Assembly: GCA_036758585.1 (NCBI GenBank)
Contig: DAIOWH010000095.1
Location: 1 to 23,794, forward strand
Reading direction: 5' to 3'
DNA: 23,794 bases
DNA from: Planctomycetia bacterium
Lineage (GTDB): Bacteria; Planctomycetota; Planctomycetia; JALXBF01; JBGPMX01
This document shows, one piece after another, positions 9,022 to 23,794 of this stretch. The position numbers were made by a program, and so were the translations under genes. Every line of letters starts with the position of its first letter. The first letter of the stretch is position 1. The notes below the pieces were generated by a model. That model was not told where the DNA came from and did no database searches. It saw only the letters and a list, made by a program, of their open reading frames with translations.

Positions 9022-9774
9022 TCAAGCGCGGTCGGCCTCGCCGGTCCGCAACTCGCCGCGGCGGCGCGCCAGAAACTGTACGAATTCGGCGTGCTCGGGC
9101 GATTGTAGGCCCAGATTCAACGCGGTGAGCATTTGTGCGACATCGCCACGCAGCAACGCGATCGTGTCGAGCCAAAGGCCGGGGAATGAGACAGACCGAA
9201 CAATGCCCCGGTCATCGGCGGGCAGCGGCTGATACGTCCCGGCGACGCGCCGCAGCCAGCGGACCTCGCGCTCGGCGAGCAGCACAATGATGTATTCCAA
9301 AACTCCAGCCGAACGATATAGGTCTAGTTTCTGGTTCAGATCGTACGAACTGCTGGACAGCGCGATCTCCGCCAACAACTCCGGTGCGCCGTGGCCATAC
9401 TTGCCCTCCACGCGCGATTGACCGCCGCATTCCGGCAAGATTCGCAAGTGATCGTCCGGCTGCGGCGCATCCTGCAGCATGAGCCATGTGGTGTTGGTTC
9501 CGCCCTTGCACCCTGGTGTTTGTGCGACATAGACGGTTAGCCAGCCAGCGATGGGAAGGTCGGTCTCGCCGTGCTCGATACTCACCGGTGACGGCATGTA
9601 AACGATTCCTCCAATCAACTCGGCCTTGCGCACGTGCGGCATCGACTCGTAGCGGCGCAGAAACTCCCGCTGCGTCAGGCAGTCGCCGGCCACGAGCGGA
9701 GGAACGTCGGGCGATGACGATGCGGGAACGTGCGGCGAGCGCGAGGGCAACAGGATTTCGGCGCCGACGCTCAT
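9022..9774 (-). CDS. Uma2-family (DUF820, PF05685) putative restriction-endonuclease-like protein
   Basis: LTQREFLRRYESMPHVRKAELIGGIVYMPSPVSIEHGE is characteristic of Uma2. It lies 15 nt upstream of the DAACS gene on the same strand. The N-terminal ~30 aa may be an over-extension. Confidence 0.7.
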   Translation of the reverse strand: MSVGAEILLPSRSPHVPASSSPDVPPLVAGDCLTQREFLRRYESMPHVRKAELIGGIVYMPSPVSIEHGETDLPIAGWLTVYVAQTPGCKGGTNTTWLMLQDAPQPDDHLRILPECGGQSRVEGKYGHGAPELLAEIALSSSSYDLNQKLDLYRSAGVLEYIIVLLAEREVRWLRRVAGTYQPLPADDRGIVRSVSFPGLWLDTIALLRGDVAQMLTALNLGLQSPEHAEFVQFLARRRGELRTGEADRA

Positions 9775-9854
9775 CGGTCAATCTCCGGATAGTACTCGGA
9801 CCAGCCCCATCATAACCGACAACGGCAATTCGTGCCGGCGGGCCACAGGTCGGT

Positions 9855-13795: not shown

Positions 13796-13828
13796 GAACC
13801 CGGTCCCGGACAGCTCCGGGCTCGGCGA

Positions 13829-13960
13829 GTAGGCTGGGTGCGGCACCCAGCCTACGGAAGACCCATTCAGAAGTAGGCTGGGTGCGGCACCCAGCCTACG
13901 GAAGACCCATTCAGAAGTAGGCTGGGTGCGGCACCCAGCCTACGGAAGACCCATTCAGAA
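13829..13960. repeat. Three tandem 44-bp units, each a 27-nt perfect palindrome 'gtaggctgggtgcggcacccagcctac' plus 'ggaagacccattcagaa' (REP/BIME-like)
   Basis: Read directly: units start at 13829, 13873 and 13917 and are identical. They are preceded by 'cggcgagtaggctgg', which is also found at 10511. Confidence 0.8.
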
Positions 13961-14133
13961 GTGCAAGGACAAGATGAATGGCAAATCGTTGTGGAGTGAC
14001 TGCTAAGAAGTCATCGGCGACGAGCAAAGTAATGGCGCAGATTCCCCTGCGCACGGCTGTTTGTTAGGATTACGCCCGATCGGAAAGTCTCGCGGAAGAC
14101 CCACGAAGCCAATACGCAAGGAGTTACGATTCG

Positions 14134-14579: not shown

Positions 14580-14604
14580 TCGCTCGGAGTGTCGGCGTTG
14601 ATTT

Positions 14605-14640
14605 CGAGGCGGCCTGCCGTCACAATGCCGCCTCGTTTGC
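14605..14640 (+). terminator. Putative intrinsic terminator (9-bp stem cgaggcggc/gccgcctcg, 13-nt loop, then TTTGC)
   Basis: Read directly, downstream of the CBS gene. The U-tract is short, so this is weak. Confidence 0.3.
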
Positions 14641-14678
14641 TCGGTGACTGTGCCTTGGTCGATACCGTCGGAGTACGA

Positions 14679-15497
14679 ATGAACGTCAAACGACTCACGC
14701 TCGAAGAGATCGACGACCTGAAGCGACGCTGGACTGAGAAGTATGTCGAGGTGGACGCGAGCCGGCCGGAGCTGAAACGGTTCGCCGGTCGGGCCGGCCG
14801 TGTGATCACGGTGAACATGAGCGGCAAGGCGTTGGTGCAGTTCGACGATGCGGAAGGTTGCGGCTGGGGGCGCTACGACATCGGCCTGCCGTTCCTGACG
14901 CAGGTTGCCGCGCCCGCGCCGGCGGCGAAGAAGCACGAGGCGGCCGAGAAGCCAAAGGCGGAGGCTGCGGCGTCGAGCGGCGCCCCGACCGCGAAGAAGT
15001 CGCCCATCGAACTCATGAAGGAGAAGGCCGCAGCCAAGAAGGCCGCCGAAGCGGGCGCGCCCGCCGAGACGCTGCCGGCCGGGCCGGTCAAGAAATCACC
15101 CATCGAGTTGATGCGCGAAAAGGCCGCGGCAAAGGCGGCGAGTGAAGGCGCGCCGGCCGCCGAACCGGCGACGACGCCGACGGCCAAGAAGTCGCCGATC
15201 GAGTTGATGCGAGAGAAAGCTGCGGCGAAGGTGGCAGGTAGCGGCACGCCCGCCGCCGCTGAACCGGCGACCGCGCCGACCGCCAAGAAATCTCCGATCG
15301 AACTGATGCGCGAGAAAGCTGCGGCTAAGAAGGCCGCCGAGGCCGGTTCCACCGAACCCGCAGGGACCTCAGCCAGCCCACCCGATGCCTCCTCGTCGCC
15401 ACCGGCTGCGACACAAAAGGAAGGTGGACTCTCCAAGATCGAGATGATCCGACAAGCGGCAGCCAAGAAAAAGGCCGAGGAGCAGGGCAAGGCCTGA
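14679..15497 (+). CDS. Hypothetical protein with ~100-aa N-terminal domain and 4-5 tandem ~32-aa Ala/Lys/Pro-rich repeats containing 'KKSPIELMREKAAAK'
   Basis: Met at 14679 (MNVKRLTLEEIDDLKRRW) with GGAG 8 nt upstream. The repeat is visible at both protein and DNA level (period ~96-99 nt from ~14990 to 15340). Confidence 0.65.
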   Translation: MNVKRLTLEEIDDLKRRWTEKYVEVDASRPELKRFAGRAGRVITVNMSGKALVQFDDAEGCGWGRYDIGLPFLTQVAAPAPAAKKHEAAEKPKAEAAASSGAPTAKKSPIELMKEKAAAKKAAEAGAPAETLPAGPVKKSPIELMREKAAAKAASEGAPAAEPATTPTAKKSPIELMREKAAAKVAGSGTPAAAEPATAPTAKKSPIELMREKAAAKKAAEAGSTEPAGTSASPPDASSSPPAATQKEGGLSKIEMIRQAAAKKKAEEQGKA

Positions 15498-15589
15498 AAA
15501 TCGGTTCATTGTCGTGGGCGGCCTGCCAACATCACTGGGAACGGGCTGCCTGTTTTCGGGCGAGCGCACGCGGGCCGCGTGCGGCACAC

Positions 15590-16651
15590 TCAGAGCCCCA
15601 TCGTGGGGGCCTGCGTCAGATACATCACGCGGGGCACGCCGGCCCGAAGCAGCGACTGGAGATCGATCTCGATCTTCGAACTGCGGCCGGTCGCGCTGCC
15701 CAGCAAGAGTTCCAGGAAGTCGAGCGGCCGTTTGTATTCGATCACCTGTGCATCGCTAATCTTGGCCAAGCTCTTGGCGGCGTCGATCGCGTCCTCGATA
15801 TAGCCGATCTCATCCACCAGCCCGCTCGCCTTGGCCTCGCGCGATGTGTAGACGTCGCCGGTGGCGAGTTTCTTCACTTCGTCCGCCGTCATGCCTCGCC
15901 CCTCGCTGACGACCTCGATGAACCGCTCGAAGGCGTCGTCGATCACCACCTGCCAACGTTCGCGCTCGGCCGGCGTCATCTCGCGAAACGGCGATCCGGC
16001 GTCTTTGAACGGGCCGGTCTTGATCACTTCCATACGGACCTTGAAGTCCTCCATCAGCCCGGCCACGTTCGGGAAGCTGGCGATGACGCCGATCGAGCCG
16101 GTCATCGTGGTTCGTTCGGCGAAGATGCGGTTCGCGGGGGCCGAGACGTAGTAACCGCCCGATGCGGCCAGCCCCTGCATCGACACGACGATCGGTTTCG
16201 TCTCGCCCGGCCCGCGGCAAACCTGTTGCACCTTGCGGTGAATGTGGTCGCTCGAGAAGATCGTGCCGCCCGGCGAATCGACCTTGAGCACAATCGCCTT
16301 CACCGCGTCGTCCTCTTCGGCGGCCTTGAGCTGCCGAATCACATGACGTTCGGTGACGTCCATGATCATGTCTTCGACCGAGACGATCGCGACCTTGTTC
16401 GGCGAGTTCTCATCGCCGCTGTGAAACTCCTCTTCGAGCCAAACGTCGGTCGTGGCGATGGACACGCTGCTGGCCAGCAGGTAGAGGCCGCCGACCAGCA
16501 GAACCGCGAACACGCCGAGCACGGCGAACAGGATCATCAGCCCGCGCAGCAGTCCGCTGCCTCGCCGTGGCGGGGGCGCGGCGGCGTAGGTCGGGTGAGC
16601 GGGCGATAGCACTTGAGGCTGAGCGTACACTGGGTTGTTGGGCTCGTTCAT
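15590..16651 (-). CDS. sppA: Signal peptide peptidase SppA (S49 family, 36K type)
   Basis: N-terminal TM helix, VDSPGGT and the Ser-containing MQGLAASGGYY motif of S49 peptidases. Start chosen at ATG 16651 (AAGGA 8 nt upstream). The alternatives are TTG 16666 or ATG 16657. Confidence 0.8.
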   Translation of the reverse strand: MNEPNNPVYAQPQVLSPAHPTYAAAPPPRRGSGLLRGLMILFAVLGVFAVLLVGGLYLLASSVSIATTDVWLEEEFHSGDENSPNKVAIVSVEDMIMDVTERHVIRQLKAAEEDDAVKAIVLKVDSPGGTIFSSDHIHRKVQQVCRGPGETKPIVVSMQGLAASGGYYVSAPANRIFAERTTMTGSIGVIASFPNVAGLMEDFKVRMEVIKTGPFKDAGSPFREMTPAERERWQVVIDDAFERFIEVVSEGRGMTADEVKKLATGDVYTSREAKASGLVDEIGYIEDAIDAAKSLAKISDAQVIEYKRPLDFLELLLGSATGRSSKIEIDLQSLLRAGVPRVMYLTQAPTMGL

Positions 16652-16756
16652 GGTCATTCCTTGCAAAGCATCACAGGAGCGAGAACCGATTCCGCTTCGA
16701 CGGGTTCATTCTACTCGCGACCCTCGATCGAGACGTAGAGCAAGCGGTTCGATGTA

Positions 16757-17254
16757 TTACTGGCCGCCGTCGCGCGGTTCGGGCGTTGCGGTCACGACGG
16801 GCGTCCCGTAGGGCACGGGCGGGTCGTGCGGTCGCGCTGGTTCGATCGCGAAGATCAGCCATCGCCCTCGCTCGCGGCGCAGCCGGTACGCCTGAAGTTC
16901 CCATGGTCGTTTTTCGTAGACGCGGTCTACCAGCACATAGACCTCGTCCGGGCCGCGCGACTCGGTCTTGAGCAGGGCCTGGCCCTTGATTTCGGCGGCG
17001 GCCCGCCGCAGTTCGGCGCCGAACTCGCCACCGCGCCGAGACTCGACGTCGCGTCGCGCGGCGTCGCGCGGCTCGCCCGTCAGGCACGCGAGGTATGCAG
17101 CCACGTCGCCCTGCTGCATCGCCTGCAGCAGTTGGTCAAGCACGGCCTCGGGAGCGTCGGTCGACCCCGGCGCACGCATGATCGCCAGCGGCGCGATCGC
17201 ACCGATCAGCACCGCCGTCGCCGCTCCCGCCACCAACTTGGTCCTGCCAACCAT
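16757..17254 (-). CDS. Hypothetical exported/membrane-anchored protein (166 aa)
   Basis: ATG at 17254 with GAGGGA upstream. The N-terminal hydrophobic segment MVGRTKLVAGAATAVLIGAIAPLAI suggests a signal or anchor. It lies 17 nt downstream of the methyltransferase gene on the same strand. No family recognised. Confidence 0.5.
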   Translation of the reverse strand: MVGRTKLVAGAATAVLIGAIAPLAIMRAPGSTDAPEAVLDQLLQAMQQGDVAAYLACLTGEPRDAARRDVESRRGGEFGAELRRAAAEIKGQALLKTESRGPDEVYVLVDRVYEKRPWELQAYRLRRERGRWLIFAIEPARPHDPPVPYGTPVVTATPEPRDGGQ

Positions 17255-17270
17255 TCGCAGTCCCTCAATC

Positions 17271-18086
17271 TCACTGCCGCCGCGACTTGGCGAGCCGCAG
17301 CGCCGCACGAGCCTCGCGCTCGGCCAACTCCGCTCGCACCCGCCACGCTTCGAGCTGCGCCACGTACTGTCGCATCCAGGGCGTCAGATTCACGGAATCG
17401 ACGTACAGAGCCAATTCGGCGTTCGACTCCTTGAGGCGTCGGGCGCACAAGATGCCGAGTCCGTGGAACCCCGGAAGTTGCACCAGGTCGATCGGTTCGC
17501 TCGCTTCGCGCACGAAATCCTCGACCGCCGTGAGCACGCCGTTGCGCGGCCCGTGTTCGATCGTCGCGTTGCACAGGCCCGGATTGAATCCGCCCCGTTC
17601 GACAAGCTGCGTGGAATCCGGCCGCATGCCCTTCTTCTGATACGGATTGCGGTGCTCGGCCGGTATCGACGTCGGGTCGTAGTACAGGTCGCGTCGACCG
17701 TAGGGCCAGCCGATGTCGTGACAGAAGACGAGCGGAAACGGCCGACCGGCCGCGGTGCTCGACCGCTCGATCAGCTTCAGTTCATGATAGACCGAGTACC
17801 AGTTGTGATCTCCGTCGACCAGCGCGGCGTCGACGCTTTCGATTTGCGGCAGCGCGTCGAGGCTCTTGGCCCGATGCACGATCAATCGCCCGCCGAACTC
17901 CGTCTGCCAGCCGGCGACGTCGAACTTGGGCGCGGGATCGATCGCGTGCAGAACTGCGCCCAAGCGGCGGCACAATTCCGCGAGCCGCCGCGTGCTCTTG
18001 CCCTCCTCCGAACCGATCTCGACCACGCACGTCGGCCGCAGTCGAACGAGCAGCGGTTCGATGATCGTTTCCCAATACGGGTACAT
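17271..18086 (-). CDS. Class I SAM-dependent methyltransferase (Methyltransf_24/CmcI-like)
   Basis: CVVEIGSEEGKST (glycine-rich SAM motif I) and LVDGDHNWYSV (acidic motif). It is 22 nt downstream of hflC on the same strand. Confidence 0.7.
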   Translation of the reverse strand: MYPYWETIIEPLLVRLRPTCVVEIGSEEGKSTRRLAELCRRLGAVLHAIDPAPKFDVAGWQTEFGGRLIVHRAKSLDALPQIESVDAALVDGDHNWYSVYHELKLIERSSTAAGRPFPLVFCHDIGWPYGRRDLYYDPTSIPAEHRNPYQKKGMRPDSTQLVERGGFNPGLCNATIEHGPRNGVLTAVEDFVREASEPIDLVQLPGFHGLGILCARRLKESNAELALYVDSVNLTPWMRQYVAQLEAWRVRAELAEREARAALRLAKSRRQ

Positions 18087-18108
18087 GAGCCTCCCAATCG
18101 CTCGCAGT

Positions 18109-19011
18109 TTACGGCTGATCGCGCATGATGGTCAGGTCGACGTCCTGGCCGCGGTCGATGATCAGCTTCGCGCGAAAGCGGGGCACGATCTCGGCGATGG
18201 TTTCGAGGTACATGCGCGCGGCGGCGACCGCCGGCGCCTTGCGATACTCGTAGAGCAAGGCGACGAACCGTTCGGCCTCGCTGCGCGCCAGGTCGACGGC
18301 CCGCGCGTGCTCGGCCCGCGCGCGGTCGGTCCGCTGTTGCGACTCGCTGCGGGCCTGGGCCAGCTTCTCGTTCGCGTAGGTCTTGGCCTCCAGCACCAGT
18401 CGCTCGCGATCGCTGCGGGCCGACGCGGCGCGAGTGAATGCGTCGACGACCTGCGGCGGCGGCGAGAGTTCCGTAAGGCTGACCGAGCGGACCTCGACGC
18501 CCATCTCATACCGCCTCAGATTCTGCTCCAGCGTGTCCTTGATCAAAATCGCCAGTGCATCCTTGCCGCTGGTCAGCACCGAGTCGATGGACTTGCCCGC
18601 CAGCGTCGTCGACGCCGCCGACTCGGCCGCGCGCGTAATGACCTCGGCCGGATCGGCCAGCGAGAAGAGGTATCGCGTCGGGTCGGTGATGGTGTACTGC
18701 ACCGTTGCTTCGACGATCACCAGGTTCTGGTCGCCCGTCAGGAACTGGGCCAGCGACGGCGCGAGCGACGGACCGATCGCGCGATCGGTCGCGCGGTCGC
18801 CGATCTTCACGGTCTTGGTCTCGCTCGGCTTCACCAGATCGACGCGATCGAGGCCCCAGGGCAGCCCGATGTGCAGGCCCGGTTCGGCATGCTCGTCGAT
18901 GACCGCGCCGAAGCGGCGCACGACCGCTCGCTCGTCCGTGCCGACTGTGTAGATGCCGGTCGCAAGGTAGGCGATCGCACCGGCGATCACTGCCGCGACG
19001 AACCATTTCAT
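18109..19011 (-). CDS. hflC: SPFH/band-7 protein, HflC-like (short N-terminus, one TM, periplasmic SPFH domain, C-terminal coiled coil)
   Basis: MKWFVAAVIAGAIAYLATGIY TM helix, then RAVVRRFGAV...GLHIGLPWGLDRV SPFH start. GGAGG RBS. The ATG overlaps the hflK stop (ATGA at 19008-19011). Confidence 0.85.
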   Translation of the reverse strand: MKWFVAAVIAGAIAYLATGIYTVGTDERAVVRRFGAVIDEHAEPGLHIGLPWGLDRVDLVKPSETKTVKIGDRATDRAIGPSLAPSLAQFLTGDQNLVIVEATVQYTITDPTRYLFSLADPAEVITRAAESAASTTLAGKSIDSVLTSGKDALAILIKDTLEQNLRRYEMGVEVRSVSLTELSPPPQVVDAFTRAASARSDRERLVLEAKTYANEKLAQARSESQQRTDRARAEHARAVDLARSEAERFVALLYEYRKAPAVAAARMYLETIAEIVPRFRAKLIIDRGQDVDLTIMRDQP

Positions 19012-20339
19012 GGCTTGCCCTCCGTGTTGCCGCCGCCGGGCGGGCCGCTGCTTGCCGGGCCGGCGCCGTTGGCGGCCGGCGCGGACTGTTTGGCCGGCGG
19101 CTTGGTCGAGGTCGCGGCGGGATGGCCGTCGGTCAGGAGTCGCAGCAGGTTCGATTCGGACGAGAGCACGATGGTGGTCTTTTCGTTCAGGATCGCGCGA
19201 TAGGTTTCGAGCGTCTTCAGGAACTGGTAGAACTCGGGGTCCTGACTGTGCGCGGCGTTGGCGATGCGCATGGCCTGGGCCTCGCCCTCGCCGCGGATGC
19301 GTTCGGCGTCGGCGGCCGCCTTGGCCAGTATCTCGGCGCGCTCGGTGTCGGCAAGGCTGCGTATCTTGTCGGCCTCACTCTTGCCCTCGTCGCGATACTT
19401 CTTGGCGACGCCCTGGCGCTCGGCCCGAATCATCTCGAAGATCGCCGGCTTCACCGCTTCGGGATGATTGAACCGCTTGATCCGCACGTCCACGATCTCG
19501 ATGCCGAACTGATCGAGTGCATCGCGGCGAATCTGCTCGGTCAGCTCGCGCATCAGCCGATCAAGCCCGATGTCCTTGGGGTCAAGGCTGACGAACTCAG
19601 CGAGACTCATTTCTCCGACCCGGGCCTTGAGCATCGAGTCGATGCGTTCGCGCAGCCGGTCTTGAGCGGCCGGGATGCTGCCGACCGAGAGCACGAAACG
19701 CAACACGCCCTTTTTGAAATCGGCGTTGGCCTTCGCGGTCGGGATGCGCCAGCAGACGTACCAATCGACCGAGAGCGGCGGGCCGCCGAGACTGGCTCGC
19801 GACCGTGCGTCGCCCGCCGCCTGGCCGATCTGCGGCCGATCGCGCGTGAGCATGGTGCTGCCGGGCGGGCTGTACATTTGCAGCCGCCGATCCAGCCGCC
19901 GCACGCTCTGATACGGCAGCTTGAAACCCAACCCCGGCTCGACGCACAACCGGACCGGCCTGCCGAATTCCAGGACGTAGACATACTCGGTCTGGTCCAC
20001 AAAGAAACACGCCGACCAAGCGACGAGGCCGACGAGACCCGCCGTCACGCATGTCACAACCGCCCGCTTGATCGAGCCGCCTCGGCCGGGGCCGTGCACG
20101 TGGGAGTGGTCGTGGTGATGGTGGTCGTGACCGCCGTCGTGCGAATGGCTATGTGCATGGTCGTGATCGTGATCGTGGTCATGATCGTGATGGCCGTGAC
20201 CATGGTCGTGTGCGTGGCTGTGCGGGTGGCTGTGTCCGTGCGAATGGCCATGATTGTGGTCATGGTTGTGGCTGTGCCCATGAGATTCGCTCGGGGCGTG
20301 CGAGTGATCGTGCTCGTGCTTGTCGGATTCGTTGTGCAT
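19008..20339 (-). CDS. hflK: SPFH/band-7 protein, HflK-like, with ~80-aa His/Asp/Ser-rich N-terminal cytoplasmic tail
   Basis: Residues 1-82 are HxHx repeats (HEHDHSHAPSESHGHSHNHDHNHGHSHGHSHPHSHAHDHGHGHHDHDHDHDHDHAHSHSHDGGHDHHHHDHSHVH). A TM helix follows (AVVTCVTAGLVGLVAWSACFF), then the SPFH domain (YVYVLEFGRPV...EPGLGFKLPY) and a Lys/Ala/Glu-rich coiled coil. Confidence 0.85.
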   Translation of the reverse strand: MHNESDKHEHDHSHAPSESHGHSHNHDHNHGHSHGHSHPHSHAHDHGHGHHDHDHDHDHDHAHSHSHDGGHDHHHHDHSHVHGPGRGGSIKRAVVTCVTAGLVGLVAWSACFFVDQTEYVYVLEFGRPVRLCVEPGLGFKLPYQSVRRLDRRLQMYSPPGSTMLTRDRPQIGQAAGDARSRASLGGPPLSVDWYVCWRIPTAKANADFKKGVLRFVLSVGSIPAAQDRLRERIDSMLKARVGEMSLAEFVSLDPKDIGLDRLMRELTEQIRRDALDQFGIEIVDVRIKRFNHPEAVKPAIFEMIRAERQGVAKKYRDEGKSEADKIRSLADTERAEILAKAAADAERIRGEGEAQAMRIANAAHSQDPEFYQFLKTLETYRAILNEKTTIVLSSESNLLRLLTDGHPAATSTKPPAKQSAPAANGAGPASSGPPGGGNTEGKP

Positions 20340-20363
20340 GCGATTCTCAGTAGGCGCGTTGAA

Positions 20364-23300
20364 CTACTGATCCAGTTCCATCGGCGGCGTCGCGACCGGT
20401 GCGGCGGCGGCGGGGAGCCGGATGTTGAACTTATCGGGGTCGGCCAGGAAGAGCTGCCGGCGACCGGCGGCGGCCGGATCGAGCACCAGCTTGTCCTTGT
20501 CGGCGAGTGTGGCCTCGATCGCGTTCAGGTAGAGCCGCAGGCTGGAGATCGCCGGCCAATCGGCGTAGGCGGCGCGTCGCATCGAAAACGCCGCCGCATC
20601 GCCCTCGGCCCGGTACGTCTGATCGGCCGCCCGCGCCTTGGCCGCGGCCAGTTCGCTCGACGCCTCGCCGCTCAGGTCCGGTTTCAGTTCGGCCCAGACC
20701 GCGTCCGTCACCTGGCCATCGTGCCGCGCGAGTCGTTCGGCGGCGGCGGCGCCGGCGACCGTGATGATTTGCTGCTGAAAGTAAGCGTCGGCCTCCTTCT
20801 GCATGCGCTCACGGTCCTTGAACGCGCTCGAAACGTCGTGGAAGGCGTCGACGACTTGCAGCGGCGGGTGCACATCCTGCAGCGCGACGGCACGGACGTC
20901 GACGCCGAGTCGGTAGTCATCGGTGCGTTGTTGCAGTAGCGACCGGGCCTCGCGCTCGATCTCGGCGCGCTCAGCGGTCAGGATATTCCAGAACGCTCGC
21001 CGCGCGGCCAGTTCGCGCAGCACGCCCTCGGCCAGCGACTTGACGACCGAGTCGGGATCGCGCACCTCGAAGAGATATCGCACGATGTCGGCGTCGCCGC
21101 GCCGCACGCTGAACTGCACCACTGCGTTCAGCTCGAGCAGGTTCTCGTCGCCCGTGAAGAGCAGCGACTCGTCCTCGACCCGTTCGATCAGTCCCTCGCG
21201 ATGCGTGCTGGTCCACTCGATCGGCCGCGCCCCTTGGAACGACTCGTCGGTCCGCGTGCGAAACCCCAGTTCGGCCACGCGCACGCGGTCGGGCGCGAAT
21301 CGCTCGACCGTCTCCCACGGCCGCGGCAGCCGGAAGTGCAGGCCCGGCTCGAGCGCGGCGATGAACCCGCCGCAACGTTTCACGACGCCGACCTCGTCGA
21401 GGTCCACTACCGTGACGCCCATCGCCCAGTAGCCGATCACGGCCGCAACCGCCGCCCACGTCGCGGCCGCTCGCGGTTTGCGCACGGCCCAACGGACGGG
21501 CTGTAGCAGCGGATCGAGCGCGGCGCCTGCGCGGCGGGCCAGTTCGCACGCCTGCGATTCGAACCGACCGGCCGCCGATCGTTCCCAGCGCTCGAACCAG
21601 AGCAGGCGCATCGCATTGACCAGCACGAGAAACGAACCGATCTGGTGGTAGATCGCCGCGCCGACCGGGCCCAGCCGTTCCGCCGCAGCGAGCACGATCG
21701 CGACGCCGTTGACGACGAACGCGAACAGCACGATGTTCTGCCGAATCACCCGCACGGTCGCGCGGCTGAGCCGCACCAGGCCGGGCAGCGGGGCGAGCGG
21801 GTCGCCCATCAGGACCAAATCGCCCGCCTCGGCCGCGATGTCGCTGCCCACGCCGCCGAGCGCCAGCCCGACGTCGGCCGATGCCAGCGCGGGAGCGTCG
21901 TTCACGCCGTCGCCGATCATGGCGATGGGAACGCGAGAGGATAGAGGATAGAGGATGGAGGATGGAGGATGGAGGATGGAGGATTGCGCAGAAGCGGTCG
22001 GAGTGTCGTTGCGCGATCCTCGATCCTCTATCCTCGATCCTCTACCATCAACCCTCCTCTTGATCCACTCGGCCTTCTCTTGCGGCAGCAACTCGGCGTG
22101 GAACTCGTCGATGCCGACGGCGCAAGCGACGGCCTCGGCGGCCGGCCGGCGGTCGCCCGTGAGTAGGACGATCTCATCGATGCCGAGGTGTCGCAGCTCG
22201 CCAAGCACGTCGACGGCACCGGCCCGGATCGTGTCGCGCGCGCCGACGAGGCCGATGACGCGGCCGTCGAGCGCGACGGCGAGCGGCGTCTGGCCGGCCG
22301 CGTCGAGTCGCGCGAAGGCCGCGGTAACCTCGTCATCCAGCGTGACGCCCTGCTGCTCAAGCAACCGTCGGTTGCCGACGCAAATCAGAGATTGCTGATT
22401 GCTGATCGCCGATTGCTGATCGCTGACGGTTGACGTCTGACCGCTCGTCCGCGCGACAACTCCTGCGCCGGGGTGGGCCGTGAACTCATCGACGGAGGGC
22501 AGCACGAGTGCGCGTTTGGCGGCCTCGGCGACGATCAAACGACCCAACAGATGTTCGCTACGCGACTCGGCAGCCGCGGCGATCGCGAGCACCTCGTCGG
22601 CCGAGCGCTCGGCGAGCGGGATGACGTCGCCGAGTTGCAGCTTGCCTTCGGTCAATGTGCCGGTCTTGTCAAAGGCGATCGCGCGGACGTGGGCAAGGCG
22701 CTCGAGTGCGGCACCGCCCTTGATCAGGACGCCGCGCCGGGCCAGCCACGCCAACGCGGCCATGATTGCGGCGGGGGTCGCCAGAATCAGCGCGCACGGG
22801 CACGCGACGACCAGCACCGCGAGCGTCGGCATCCAATCGGCGCTCGTCAGGTCCGACCAAGGAGTACCCCAGGTCGTGTAGACCATCGTGCCGGCGGCAC
22901 TCGCGAGCACGACCGGCAGGAACACGCGGGCGAGCCGGTCGGCGATGCGTTCGATCGGCGCCTTGTTCTCTTGCGCCTCGGCGACCAGCTCGATCACCTG
23001 AGCGAGCGTTGTGTCCTCGCCGACCTTGTCGGCCCGCACTTCGAGCGCGCCGAACTGGTTCAGCGTGCCGGCGAAGACCATATCGCCCGCGGCCTTGTCC
23101 ACCGGCACACTCTCGCCAGTAAGCGTGCTCTGGTCCACGGCCGACTGGCCGCCGAGCACCGAGCCGTCGATCGGGACTCGTTCGCCGGGCCGCACCACCA
23201 CGCGCTCGCCGACGTTCAGTTCCGTGATGGCCACGTCGACCTCGTGGCCGTCGCGCAGCACGTGGGCCACGCGCGGTTGCAGTTCCAGGATGCGGCTCAT

Positions 23301-23693
23301 CTCGCGATGCGTGCGGGCGAACGTGATCGCTTCGAGCGATTCGCCGACCATCGCGATGAAGACGACTTCGGCGCCGACCCAGTACTCGCCCAGGATCAGC
23401 GACGCGAGCAGCGCGATGGCCAGCGCGAGGTCCGCTCCCACGTTGCCATCGAACAGCGCAAGCAGCGCCCCGTAGACGATCCGCGCCCCGCCGATCACGG
23501 CCGCGGCGAACGCGAGGTCGAGCCAGCCGAACGGCCGATCTGGCCCGGTGTAACCGAACGCCGCGAGAACGAGGTGTGCGCCGATCAGCACGCCGAGCAG
23601 GATCGTCAGCGCGTACAGTCCCCGAAACGACGGCAGTCGCAGTGCGTCTTCCGGGTCTATCTTGTGCTGCATGTGCATCGGACGGGTACCCAC
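20364..23693 (-). CDS. Fusion protein: CPC-type P1B heavy-metal-translocating P-type ATPase (aa 1-~700, no N-terminal HMA domain) + linker with extra TM helix + C-terminal HflK/C-like SPFH domain (last ~347 aa)
   Basis: One uninterrupted 1109-codon frame. ATPase motifs: TGESVPV (actuator), VVACPCALILATP (TM6 CPC), FDKTGTLT (phosphorylation site), MIGDGVNDAPALA (hinge). The junction is near nt 21596 (…NAMRLLW|FERWERS…). A TM helix AAATWAAVAAVIGYWAMGV follows, then the SPFH domain (GVVKRCGGFIAALEPGLHFRLP…QVVDAFHDVSSAFKDRER…). The stop lies 24 nt upstream of hflK. Confidence 0.8.
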   Translation of the reverse strand: MGTRPMHMQHKIDPEDALRLPSFRGLYALTILLGVLIGAHLVLAAFGYTGPDRPFGWLDLAFAAAVIGGARIVYGALLALFDGNVGADLALAIALLASLILGEYWVGAEVVFIAMVGESLEAITFARTHREMSRILELQPRVAHVLRDGHEVDVAITELNVGERVVVRPGERVPIDGSVLGGQSAVDQSTLTGESVPVDKAAGDMVFAGTLNQFGALEVRADKVGEDTTLAQVIELVAEAQENKAPIERIADRLARVFLPVVLASAAGTMVYTTWGTPWSDLTSADWMPTLAVLVVACPCALILATPAAIMAALAWLARRGVLIKGGAALERLAHVRAIAFDKTGTLTEGKLQLGDVIPLAERSADEVLAIAAAAESRSEHLLGRLIVAEAAKRALVLPSVDEFTAHPGAGVVARTSGQTSTVSDQQSAISNQQSLICVGNRRLLEQQGVTLDDEVTAAFARLDAAGQTPLAVALDGRVIGLVGARDTIRAGAVDVLGELRHLGIDEIVLLTGDRRPAAEAVACAVGIDEFHAELLPQEKAEWIKRRVDGRGSRIEDRGSRNDTPTASAQSSILHPPSSILYPLSSRVPIAMIGDGVNDAPALASADVGLALGGVGSDIAAEAGDLVLMGDPLAPLPGLVRLSRATVRVIRQNIVLFAFVVNGVAIVLAAAERLGPVGAAIYHQIGSFLVLVNAMRLLWFERWERSAAGRFESQACELARRAGAALDPLLQPVRWAVRKPRAAATWAAVAAVIGYWAMGVTVVDLDEVGVVKRCGGFIAALEPGLHFRLPRPWETVERFAPDRVRVAELGFRTRTDESFQGARPIEWTSTHREGLIERVEDESLLFTGDENLLELNAVVQFSVRRGDADIVRYLFEVRDPDSVVKSLAEGVLRELAARRAFWNILTAERAEIEREARSLLQQRTDDYRLGVDVRAVALQDVHPPLQVVDAFHDVSSAFKDRERMQKEADAYFQQQIITVAGAAAAERLARHDGQVTDAVWAELKPDLSGEASSELAAAKARAADQTYRAEGDAAAFSMRRAAYADWPAISSLRLYLNAIEATLADKDKLVLDPAAAGRRQLFLADPDKFNIRLPAAAAPVATPPMELDQ
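21937..22056. repeat. 120-nt palindromic heptamer-repeat element inside the ATPase CDS (7 x 'gaggatN', 29-nt spacer, 6 x inverted 'NatcctC')
   Basis: Read directly. It is in-frame: it encodes GRGSRIEDRGSRNDTPTASAQSSILHPPSSILYPLSS between the LPQEKAEWIKRRVDG and VPIAMIGDGVNDAP blocks, which are contiguous in ordinary P1B ATPases. Confidence 0.75.
22390..22424. repeat. Heptanucleotide tandem repeat (gattgct gattgct gatcgcc gattgct gatcgct) inside the ATPase CDS
   Basis: Read directly. It encodes the low-complexity VSDQQSAISNQQS insert in the nucleotide-binding domain (…GAGVVARTSGQTST[VSDQQSAISNQQS]LICVGNRRLL…). Confidence 0.55.
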
Positions 23694-23794
23694 AGCGGCA
23701 GTTCCAAGCTAGGGGCGACCGTGGGTGAAGTCAAGCTGAAGAAAAGGTTCTTCCGGGTCTGGAGTGGCTGATTGATCGCGGTTGGTGTGTGCGG

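Follow-up and report, generated by a model that had tools for sequence, protein, structure and literature searches.

SPFH proteins (HflK/C, stomatin, prohibitin, flotillin) build rings or cages whose role for the proteins they enclose is still debated, and their clients besides proteases have mostly been inferred indirectly. HflK and HflC carry their SPFH domains on the periplasmic side, and in E. coli the two form a closed periplasmic dome over clients; the PDB entries 7VHP and 7WI3 are FtsH-HflKC complexes. Stomatin-NfeD operons, for example PH1511-PH1510/STOPP, place an SPFH gene beside the gene of a protease with a ClpP-like N-terminal domain, TM segments and an OB-fold NfeD domain at its C-terminus. 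Scaffolding of another kind is found in the mycobacterial PacL-Ctp effluxosomes (PacL1/CtpC and PacL2/CtpG), in which P1B pumps depend on single-pass scaffold proteins and cluster in membrane patches; one of these scaffolds has a His-rich metal-binding motif that is helpful but dispensable (PMC13460109). Here we analyze a locus on contig DAIOWH010000095.1 of a Planctomycetia bacterium (assembly GCA_036758585.1; all 23,794 nt are called the window) in which a heavy-metal P-type ATPase is fused to an HflK-type SPFH protein and followed by genes for an HflC-type and a second HflK-type protein. On balance, the locus seems to encode an SPFH-scaffolded heavy-metal export pump.

According to the open reading frame (ORF) list of the window, six minus-strand ORFs pointing in one direction fill positions 15590-23693. 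The spacing is as tight as the original prediction had described: in order, the genes are separated by 24 nt, a 4-nt ATGA overlap in which the HflK-type start lies over the stop codon of the hflC-type gene, 22 nt, 16 nt, and a last gap of 105 nt. Domains of the six proteins were assigned by Pfam and NCBIfam searches. The first three genes and their parts are as follows.

20364-23693, minus strand: fusion ORF, opening at GTG 23693
20364..23678, minus strand: fusion gene with likely start ATG 23678 (MHMQHK, 1104 aa), from the N-termini of homologs and public gene calls for this contig
21594..23678, minus strand: ATPase portion, aa 1 to ~695, 8 transmembrane (TM) helices, from motif positions
21405..21593, minus strand: predicted cytoplasmic linker helix and TM9, aa ~696-758, from hydropathy, the AlphaFold2 model and charge
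20367..21410, minus strand: HflK-type SPFH domain, long coiled-coil helices and C-terminal tail, from Band_7, PDB HflK and the AlphaFold2 model
19008..20339, minus strand: HflC-type SPFH gene, 443 aa, from TIGR01932 and PDB HflC
20091..20324, minus strand: His-rich tract of the HflC-type protein (HxH, HD and GHSH repeats), from composition
18109..19011, minus strand: stand-alone HflK-type SPFH gene, 300 aa, from TIGR01933 and PDB HflK

The first gene product combines E1-E2_ATPase, HAD and Band_7 domains, and its chain runs from a P1B ATPase through a ~45-aa linker helix and TM9 to an HflK-type SPFH domain and a coiled-coil tail. The pump is a P1B-type heavy-metal P-type ATPase, because DKTGT, TGES, GDGVNDAP and CPC are present and the protein scores above the cutoff of the heavy-metal P-type ATPase model TIGR01525 (533 bits, cutoff 346). 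All catalytic motifs (TGES, DKTGT, TGD, GDGxNDAP) are intact, with TGES at residue 192, CPC at 298, DKTGT at 342 and GDGVNDAP at 594. The ATPase portion has no HMA/CxxC domain, and CxxC was missing from the N-termini of 119/119 homologs, the set that was used for all N-terminus, motif and charge statistics. The fused SPFH region matches Band_7 (E = 7e-17) and reaches 153.9 bits against the hflK model TIGR01933, just below the cutoff of 159.4, and E. coli HflK (7VHP/7WI3) aligns to the TM, SPFH and C-terminal coiled-coil segments of the fusion with E = 3e-17. A full-length AlphaFold2 model (mean predicted local distance difference test score, pLDDT, 79.2) placed helices at 702-733 and 735-752 in the linker and TM9 region, beta/alpha structure at 755-937 and further helices at 940-1057, and the hydropathy peak of TM9 lies at 745-765 in the numbering of the 1109-aa ORF product. 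P1B pumps terminate in the cytoplasm. The linker and TM9, which are kept among fusion homologs, would bring the chain, which leaves M6 on the cytoplasmic side, across to the periplasm, and since only one extra TM helix follows the ATPase, the fused SPFH domain is probably periplasmic. The charge bias on the two sides of TM9 modestly favors this topology.

The ATPase gene of the window also carries two in-frame tandem-heptamer inserts (21936-22049 and 22390-22426), which encode loops of ~39 and ~20 aa in the P and N domains with AlphaFold2 pLDDT <50. The loops are missing from most fusion homologs. One insert is built from (GAGGATN)x7 opposing its own reverse complement x4, forming a 28-nt inverted repeat that is 93% complementary, and a separate (GATTGCT)x5 array lies further on in the ATPase gene. 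These inserts look like a palindromic repeat element tolerated within coding DNA.

Both genes that follow the fusion encode Band_7 proteins with a single TM helix, at aa 94-112 in the first and aa 5-23 in the second. They had been labeled HflK and then HflC, and these labels turn out to be swapped. Gene 2 scores 151.7 against the HflC model TIGR01932 (cutoff 134.4) and matches PDB HflC far better than HflK (E = 1.6e-30 vs 2.4e-9), and gene 3 scores 191.7 against the HflK model TIGR01933 (cutoff 159.4) and matches PDB HflK with E = 2.5e-39. By model cutoffs and structure matches, we assign gene 2 as HflC-type and gene 3 as HflK-type. The His-rich segment that had been described as a tail is instead an N-terminal head, with 38 His in the first 88 aa of the HflC-type protein, and it should be cytoplasmic because it precedes the single TM helix. 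It weakly matches the His-rich loop of ZnT7 (E = 7.5e-4). His tracts on HflC characterize the clade of the window and a few other loci (with examples in L004, L006, L008, L013 and L022), and in Isosphaeraceae loci, in L021 and in 34/119 homologs the tract is located on the N-terminus of the ATPase. The HflC tract is a candidate metal-binding domain supplied in trans, and the switch between cis and trans placement from lineage to lineage suggests that HflC and the pump act together at the cytoplasmic face. In Symmachiella, a 103-aa gene separates the fusion gene from hflC; it is not conserved, and its product is not His-rich.

Conservation of this arrangement was followed at several scales. All of the 120 best database homologs share the fusion architecture, with lengths of 1000-1140 aa, and the public records among them name these proteins only cation-translocating or Cu-exporting ATPases. 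A scan of one genome per GTDB species, using motifs from both sides of the ATPase/SPFH junction, gave 257 confirmed loci, and so at least 257 species representatives with the fusion. Of these loci, 80 were retained; they belong to Pirellulales, Planctomycetaceae, Isosphaeraceae, Gemmataceae, Armatimonadota (Ca. Fervidibacter) and Acidobacteriota, placing the fusion module in three phyla: Planctomycetota, Armatimonadota and Acidobacteriota. An exhaustive profile-free search with the fused C-terminal part returned 247 cluster representatives at E <= 1e-30, many of them fragments. Downstream genes were counted in the 59 related GTDB-derived loci that have at least 3.5 kb of DNA 3' of the fusion gene, and an HflC-type gene was present in 51/59 and an HflK-type gene in 49/59, followed in frequency by the small protein (18/59), SppA (2/59) and the methyltransferase (0/59).

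The row of three SPFH paralogs, one fused to a metal-transporting ATPase, which the original prediction had pointed out, is therefore a conserved module, and the conserved core is the P1B-ATPase::HflK fusion with its HflC-type and HflK-type partners, not the six-gene set. The linkage of the first three genes is more than chance; that of the six genes as a whole is not. Across 43 loci the ATPase, fused SPFH, HflC and HflK parts co-vary in their pairwise identities (Pearson 0.89-0.96), and identity across phyla is not below identity between planctomycete families, which together indicate that the module moves as a unit. Clustering of neighboring ORFs in 85 related loci showed no universal regulator or partner past the trio and the small protein, and most of the recurrent neighbors mirror close kinship of the loci. 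A full-text literature search for SPFH or HflK together with P-type or P1B ATPases found no description of an SPFH-P1B ATPase fusion. Separately, one ATPase-SPFH fusion of 1331 aa was encountered in a eukaryote-labeled protein set (P0081, eukprot g8285.t1), and this record may reflect bacterial contamination or transfer.

The metal site of the pump is formed by CPC in M4, FAFxxN in M5 (FAFVVN here) and HQxGS in M6 (HQIGS here). Across the family the corresponding motifs are CPC in M4 (116/119), N in M5 and H[QE]x[GA]S in M6, the M6 His being followed by Gln in most homologs and by Glu in a minority. The closest PDB chains to the ATPase are nearly equal in score (CopA 336 bits, sCoaT 310, ZntA 291). 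Three subclasses were considered and rejected. The P1B-1 Cu(I) class of CopA is characterized by YN in M5 and MxxSS in M6, both missing here along with the N-terminal CxxC, and the fusion scores 379.5 against TIGR01511, under its cutoff of 397; the "Cu+-exporting" labels in JGI records are automatic. For the P1B-2 Zn/Cd/Pb class of ZntA, CPC is present, but M5 has no Lys, M6 has His instead of the Asp of DxG, and ZntA equivalog scores fall far under their cutoffs. The P1B-4 class (CoaT/CzcP) has SPC in M4 and HEGxT in M6 (PMC8880997), and the family shares with it only the M6 His and, in a minority, the Glu. The published P1B-6-like signature of CtpC, N-x18-H-N-x-(S/T) from M5 to M6 with SCA or CPC in M4 (PMC13460109), is similar but not identical to the pattern seen here, in which N-x20 or N-x29 precedes H-Q/E-x-G/A-S and M4 is CPC.

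From these motifs Cu(I) is a less likely substrate than a divalent ion (Zn, Co, Ni or Cd), an assignment that we hold with low certainty. Neighbors in some relatives hint at a Ni/Co context: an RcnA-like membrane protein rich in His, an ArsR regulator or CbiMNQO. In five Pirellulales loci (L023:6849-7835(-), L007:1124-2110(-), L010, L018 and L019) the gene for the His-rich polytopic membrane protein lies upstream of the fusion gene and divergent from it; the protein has a DsbD_2 match and a weak RcnA-like match. L005 has the ArsR-type regulator upstream (9516-9833, minus strand) and CbiMNQO downstream (19102-21455).

In the reading that we favor, the three SPFH proteins (fused HflK domain, HflC-type and free HflK-type) would co-assemble, alternating in a ring or dome like that of HflK/HflC on the periplasmic side of the inner membrane. 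Some HflK positions of the ring would bear a tethered pump and the free HflK paralog would take the remainder, so that the ring would fix pumps in a defined membrane patch. In the window, the 38-His cytoplasmic tract of HflC would gather metal beside the entrance of a pump that has no N-terminal metal-binding domain of its own.

Several observations weigh against this picture. Domain homology and gene order are the basis for all that is proposed on assembly, stoichiometry, transport and metal binding. Around TM9 the charge bias is modest, with net charges of +2.3 before and +0.8 after the helix over the 119 homologs, and is held by 71% of them. The metal motifs fit no defined P1B subclass. In most lineages the His tract is found on neither the pump nor HflC, so it is not essential to the core function, and in 8/59 loci the fusion gene stands without adjacent partners, including the complete genome of Ca. 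Fervidibacter sacchari (L063). Finally, with scores above the HflC and HflK equivalog cutoffs, genes 2 and 3 could be ordinary FtsH modulators of the cell instead of dedicated partners.

This last point leads to an account based on FtsH, in which genes 2 and 3 are canonical HflC and HflK and the fused HflK inserts the pump into an FtsH-HflKC holoenzyme, where it would be held near the protease or shielded from it and its abundance set by regulated proteolysis. Besides the equivalog scores and the matches to E. coli HflC and HflK of the FtsH complex, it is favored by FtsH modulation being, to our knowledge, the only established biochemical role of HflK/C. We nevertheless consider it rather unlikely. 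The absence of FtsH from the window, already pointed out in the original prediction, was confirmed, and no FtsH-like ORF (Walker GPPGxGKT plus HExGH) was detected in the window or within 10 kb in the 85 related loci. The trio is a unit across three phyla with cross-phylum HflK identity equal to or above that between planctomycete families, which fits dedicated partners better than housekeeping proteins, and the shift of the His tract between pump and HflC is left unexplained by FtsH-coupled control.

Downstream of the trio, the last three genes of the row differ in how they relate to the module.

17271..18086, minus strand: class I SAM-dependent methyltransferase, from Methyltransf_24
16757..17254 (ORF reaches 17308), minus strand: small membrane-anchored or exported protein, 165 aa, from its TM/signal segment and the AlphaFold2 model
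15590-16666, minus strand: SppA ORF, from Peptidase_S49
15590..16651, minus strand: SppA with likely start ATG 16651, from the N-termini of homologs and public gene calls for this contig

The small protein of gene 5 is a frequent fourth component of the module. It was found in Pirellulales, Armatimonadota and Acidobacteriota, so its inclusion in the module held up when gene order was compared among relatives. The motifs GDxxxYLxCFxG and C-terminal PYGTP occur in all three phyla; a word-indexed search with the protein gave 4 relatives only, and the cross-phylum family came from the retrieved loci. Pfam and NCBIfam searches assigned it to no family. A TM or signal segment spans aa 7-25, and the AlphaFold2 core (pLDDT >90) consists of four helices followed by five strands. 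The top Foldseek matches in the PDB were ketosteroid isomerase/SnoaL/NTF2-like folds (E about 4e-4, probability 1.0, with TM-scores of only 0.3-0.45), and the L004 ortholog has a weak DUF4440 match. With the alpha+beta cone present in the model, the predicted fold is NTF2-like (SnoaL/ketosteroid-isomerase-like). No conserved His or Cys cluster was seen in the family.

The methyltransferase of gene 4 (Methyltransf_24, E = 1.3e-14) had also been counted as part of the module, and here the comparison of relatives argues otherwise. It was found only in the nearest relative, L086, which is 87% identical, and the small gene follows hflK directly, with no methyltransferase, in L004, L087 and L090. 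We rejected it as a module member; it is a recent, lineage-specific insertion. Gene-order conservation thus holds for the fusion/HflC/HflK core and fails for the row of six.

Gene 6 does encode the downstream S49 peptidase that had been described. It scores 223.4 against TIGR00706 (cutoff 155.45), matches Pfam Peptidase_S49 and B. subtilis SppA (1.2e-51), and has an N-terminal TM helix (aa 43-61). In the alignment with the B. subtilis protein the catalytic residues coincide (Ser in AASGGYY, Lys in IK(T/S)G, here IKTG), and by homology gene 6 is a normal 36K-type SppA with its Ser/Lys dyad present. An identity as NfeD was considered and rejected: the match to NfeD1b_N (32.5, E = 8e-8) falls under the cutoff of 40, an NfeD C-terminal domain is missing, and the gene is not adjacent to the SPFH genes.

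The original prediction had proposed a variant SPFH-protease system, in which SppA replaces NfeD or FtsH and would act within the scaffold to process the pump, the small protein or the SPFH proteins themselves. Part of this survives. SppA accompanies the module in the window, L004, L086, L087 and L013/L090, and in a neighbor-joining tree of the fusion protein the SppA-linked loci with a fusion gene (window, L004 and L013) form one Pirellulales clade, in which the linkage persists down to 52% fusion identity and is therefore old. In L090 the small gene overlaps sppA by 4 nt. SppA also shares the ClpP/S49 fold with the protease domain of NfeD and has the weak NfeD1b_N match, and a rhomboid protease follows hflK in another clade. 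Against this, the only linked loci besides the two among the 59 GTDB-derived ones are three close metagenomic relatives, and none lies beyond the clade. Plain synteny accounts for part of the linkage, as the linked relatives also retain an unrelated, convergently oriented gene on the far side of sppA. In the window, SppA is parted from the SPFH genes by the 105-nt gap and by the methyltransferase inserted upstream of the small gene. We find this proposal quite unlikely for the module in general; SppA is an accessory limited to one Pirellulales clade and at most a clade-specific add-on. The rhomboid linkage is confined to one genus-level Planctomycetaceae clade whose fusion proteins are 82-95% identical, with the gene for this intramembrane protease on the same strand after the HflK-type gene in L029 (13698-14912, plus strand), L034, L035, L042, L047, L048, L049 and L058.

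The convergent ORF beyond sppA (14589-15497, plus strand) has no family match and is a conserved neighbor in L004, L086 and L087. It encodes a conserved ~80-aa N-terminal domain followed by 99-nt tandem repeats encoding 'KKSPIELMREKAAAK'. Further along, at 13828-13962, the window has an intergenic perfect tandem repeat of a 44-nt unit x3 that is without an Rfam match, and each unit holds a perfect 13-bp hairpin (GTAGGCTGGGTGC/GCACCCAGCCTAC).

A periplasmic chamber has also to be weighed, in which pumps located inside an HflK/C-type dome load an enclosed lumen with a divalent metal that is sequestered from the bulk periplasm or passed to periplasmic clients, the candidates being the NTF2-like protein and a recurrent DUF3604-like metalloprotein. 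The matched E. coli structures (7VHP/7WI3) are consistent with such a dome, the fourth component of the module is a conserved, putatively periplasm-facing protein, and a ~950-aa DUF3604-like (PHP-type, metal-dependent) protein is encoded beside the module in 10 loci from two phyla in three arrangements. A position of the pump inside rather than outside the ring is supposition, however, the NTF2-like protein lacks a conserved His/Cys cluster, and the DUF3604-like matches are sub-threshold (E about 4e-4) for a gene that is not in the window. We give this reading a low probability. If it is true, the module would represent an SPFH cage with a transport-coupled compartment function, independent of any protease.

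The DUF3604-like proteins have 915-987 aa, with weak DUF3604 PHP-type and beta-propeller signals, and are encoded in L005 (16064-18811, minus strand), L038 (4977-7937, plus strand), L007, L010, L014, L016, L023, L040, L052 and L053, lying upstream on the same strand, upstream and divergent, or downstream and convergent. In L005, L014 and L016 the small NTF2-like gene comes directly after this gene instead of after hflK. Among Planctomycetaceae, menaquinone (futalosine-pathway) genes with VitK2_biosynth and radical SAM domains follow the trio in L001 (15966-17895), L025 (13798-14598) and L060.

It is very improbable that there is no functional unit at all, with the fusion being neutral or an artefact of assembly or annotation and the order of the genes a coincidence. 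The window is a metagenomic contig and promoter and terminator scans of it were uninformative, but the same uninterrupted ORF recurs in independent assemblies by the hundreds, complete genomes among them. Linker and TM9 are conserved, and so are the partner genes, which co-vary with the fusion, so that coincidence is excluded by the data.

The operon structure of the row gained nothing from these scans, which covered 15000-23794 and gave 0 promoter-like sites and 7 terminator-like sites (4.8±2.9 expected), those on the minus strand all being intragenic. Folding of the 105-nt gap between the small gene and sppA showed no unusual structure (z = 0.97), and an Rfam gathering scan of the window found nothing. 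An anti-phage defence system was considered and rejected, with no PADLOC match for any of the six proteins. The window has a GC content of ~65% and otherwise Planctomycetota-type content, including DUF4058, Uma2, GFO/IDH/MocA and xylose-isomerase-like TIM barrels.

The component families of the module are known, and what is new is their combination: a covalently fused client, two HflK types with one HflC type, and a metal-binding tract in trans. The client is defined here by a covalent bond: a transporter is joined to one of the scaffold subunits, and the genes of the remaining two lie beside it. This makes the module a natural test case for the scaffold role of SPFH proteins. Carriers with complete genomes are Symmachiella dynata (CP036270.1) and Tundrisphaera lichenicola (CP195106.1), both cultured, and Ca. 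Fervidibacter sacchari (CP130454.1). Because the module occurs in three phyla, including cultured, genome-sequenced strains, it makes testable the assembly stoichiometry, the position of the client inside or outside the ring, and the effect of the scaffold on client stability and activity.

Compared with known systems, the module is most like E. coli HflK/HflC in its SPFH parts. Both have adjacent HflC-type and HflK-type genes, which are translationally coupled, and the proteins share a single N-terminal TM, a probably periplasm-facing SPFH domain, a coiled-coil tail and significant sequence matches. Unlike in E. coli, a P1B ATPase ends in a third HflK-type subunit, hflC precedes hflK, and the long cytoplasmic extension at the N-terminus belongs to HflC (the His tract) instead of HflK; neither ftsH nor hflX is nearby. 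The likeness to stomatin-NfeD operons is limited to the clade of the window, where the SPFH cluster lies near a membrane serine protease of the ClpP/S49 fold; unlike in those operons, the protease is an ordinary 36K SppA two genes away from the SPFH genes and in one clade only.

As a pump, the ATPase resembles the P1B-4 (sCoaT, 7QBZ) and P1B-6-like (CtpC) proteins in having no HMA domain, an M6 His near the Cys-Pro of M4, and His-rich N-termini in part of the family. It differs from them in M4 (CPC, not SPC or SCA), in M6 (H-Q/E-x-G/A-S, not HEGxT or HNx(S/T)), in the N-to-H spacing (20 or 29 residues, not 18), and in the SPFH extension, which is unique to the fusion family. The module thereby defines a P1B subgroup with CPC and HQxGS motifs and no HMA domain.

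For the system as a whole, we regard the PacL-Ctp effluxosome as the closest functional precedent, analogous and not homologous. In both, genes for single-pass membrane scaffold proteins accompany that of a P1B ATPase with no canonical CxxC domain, and one scaffold bears a His-rich stretch; the clustering of pumps in membrane patches would be a further likeness. The PacL proteins differ in being small, cytosol-facing, built of Glu/Ala repeats and unfused to the pump, and they are not SPFH proteins; homology was rejected after Pfam and NCBIfam searches gave no PacL (DUF1490) match in the six proteins. By this functional analogy, the module would extend the effluxosome idea of P1B pumps on scaffolded membrane platforms, with metal-binding tails supplied in trans, to SPFH scaffolds.

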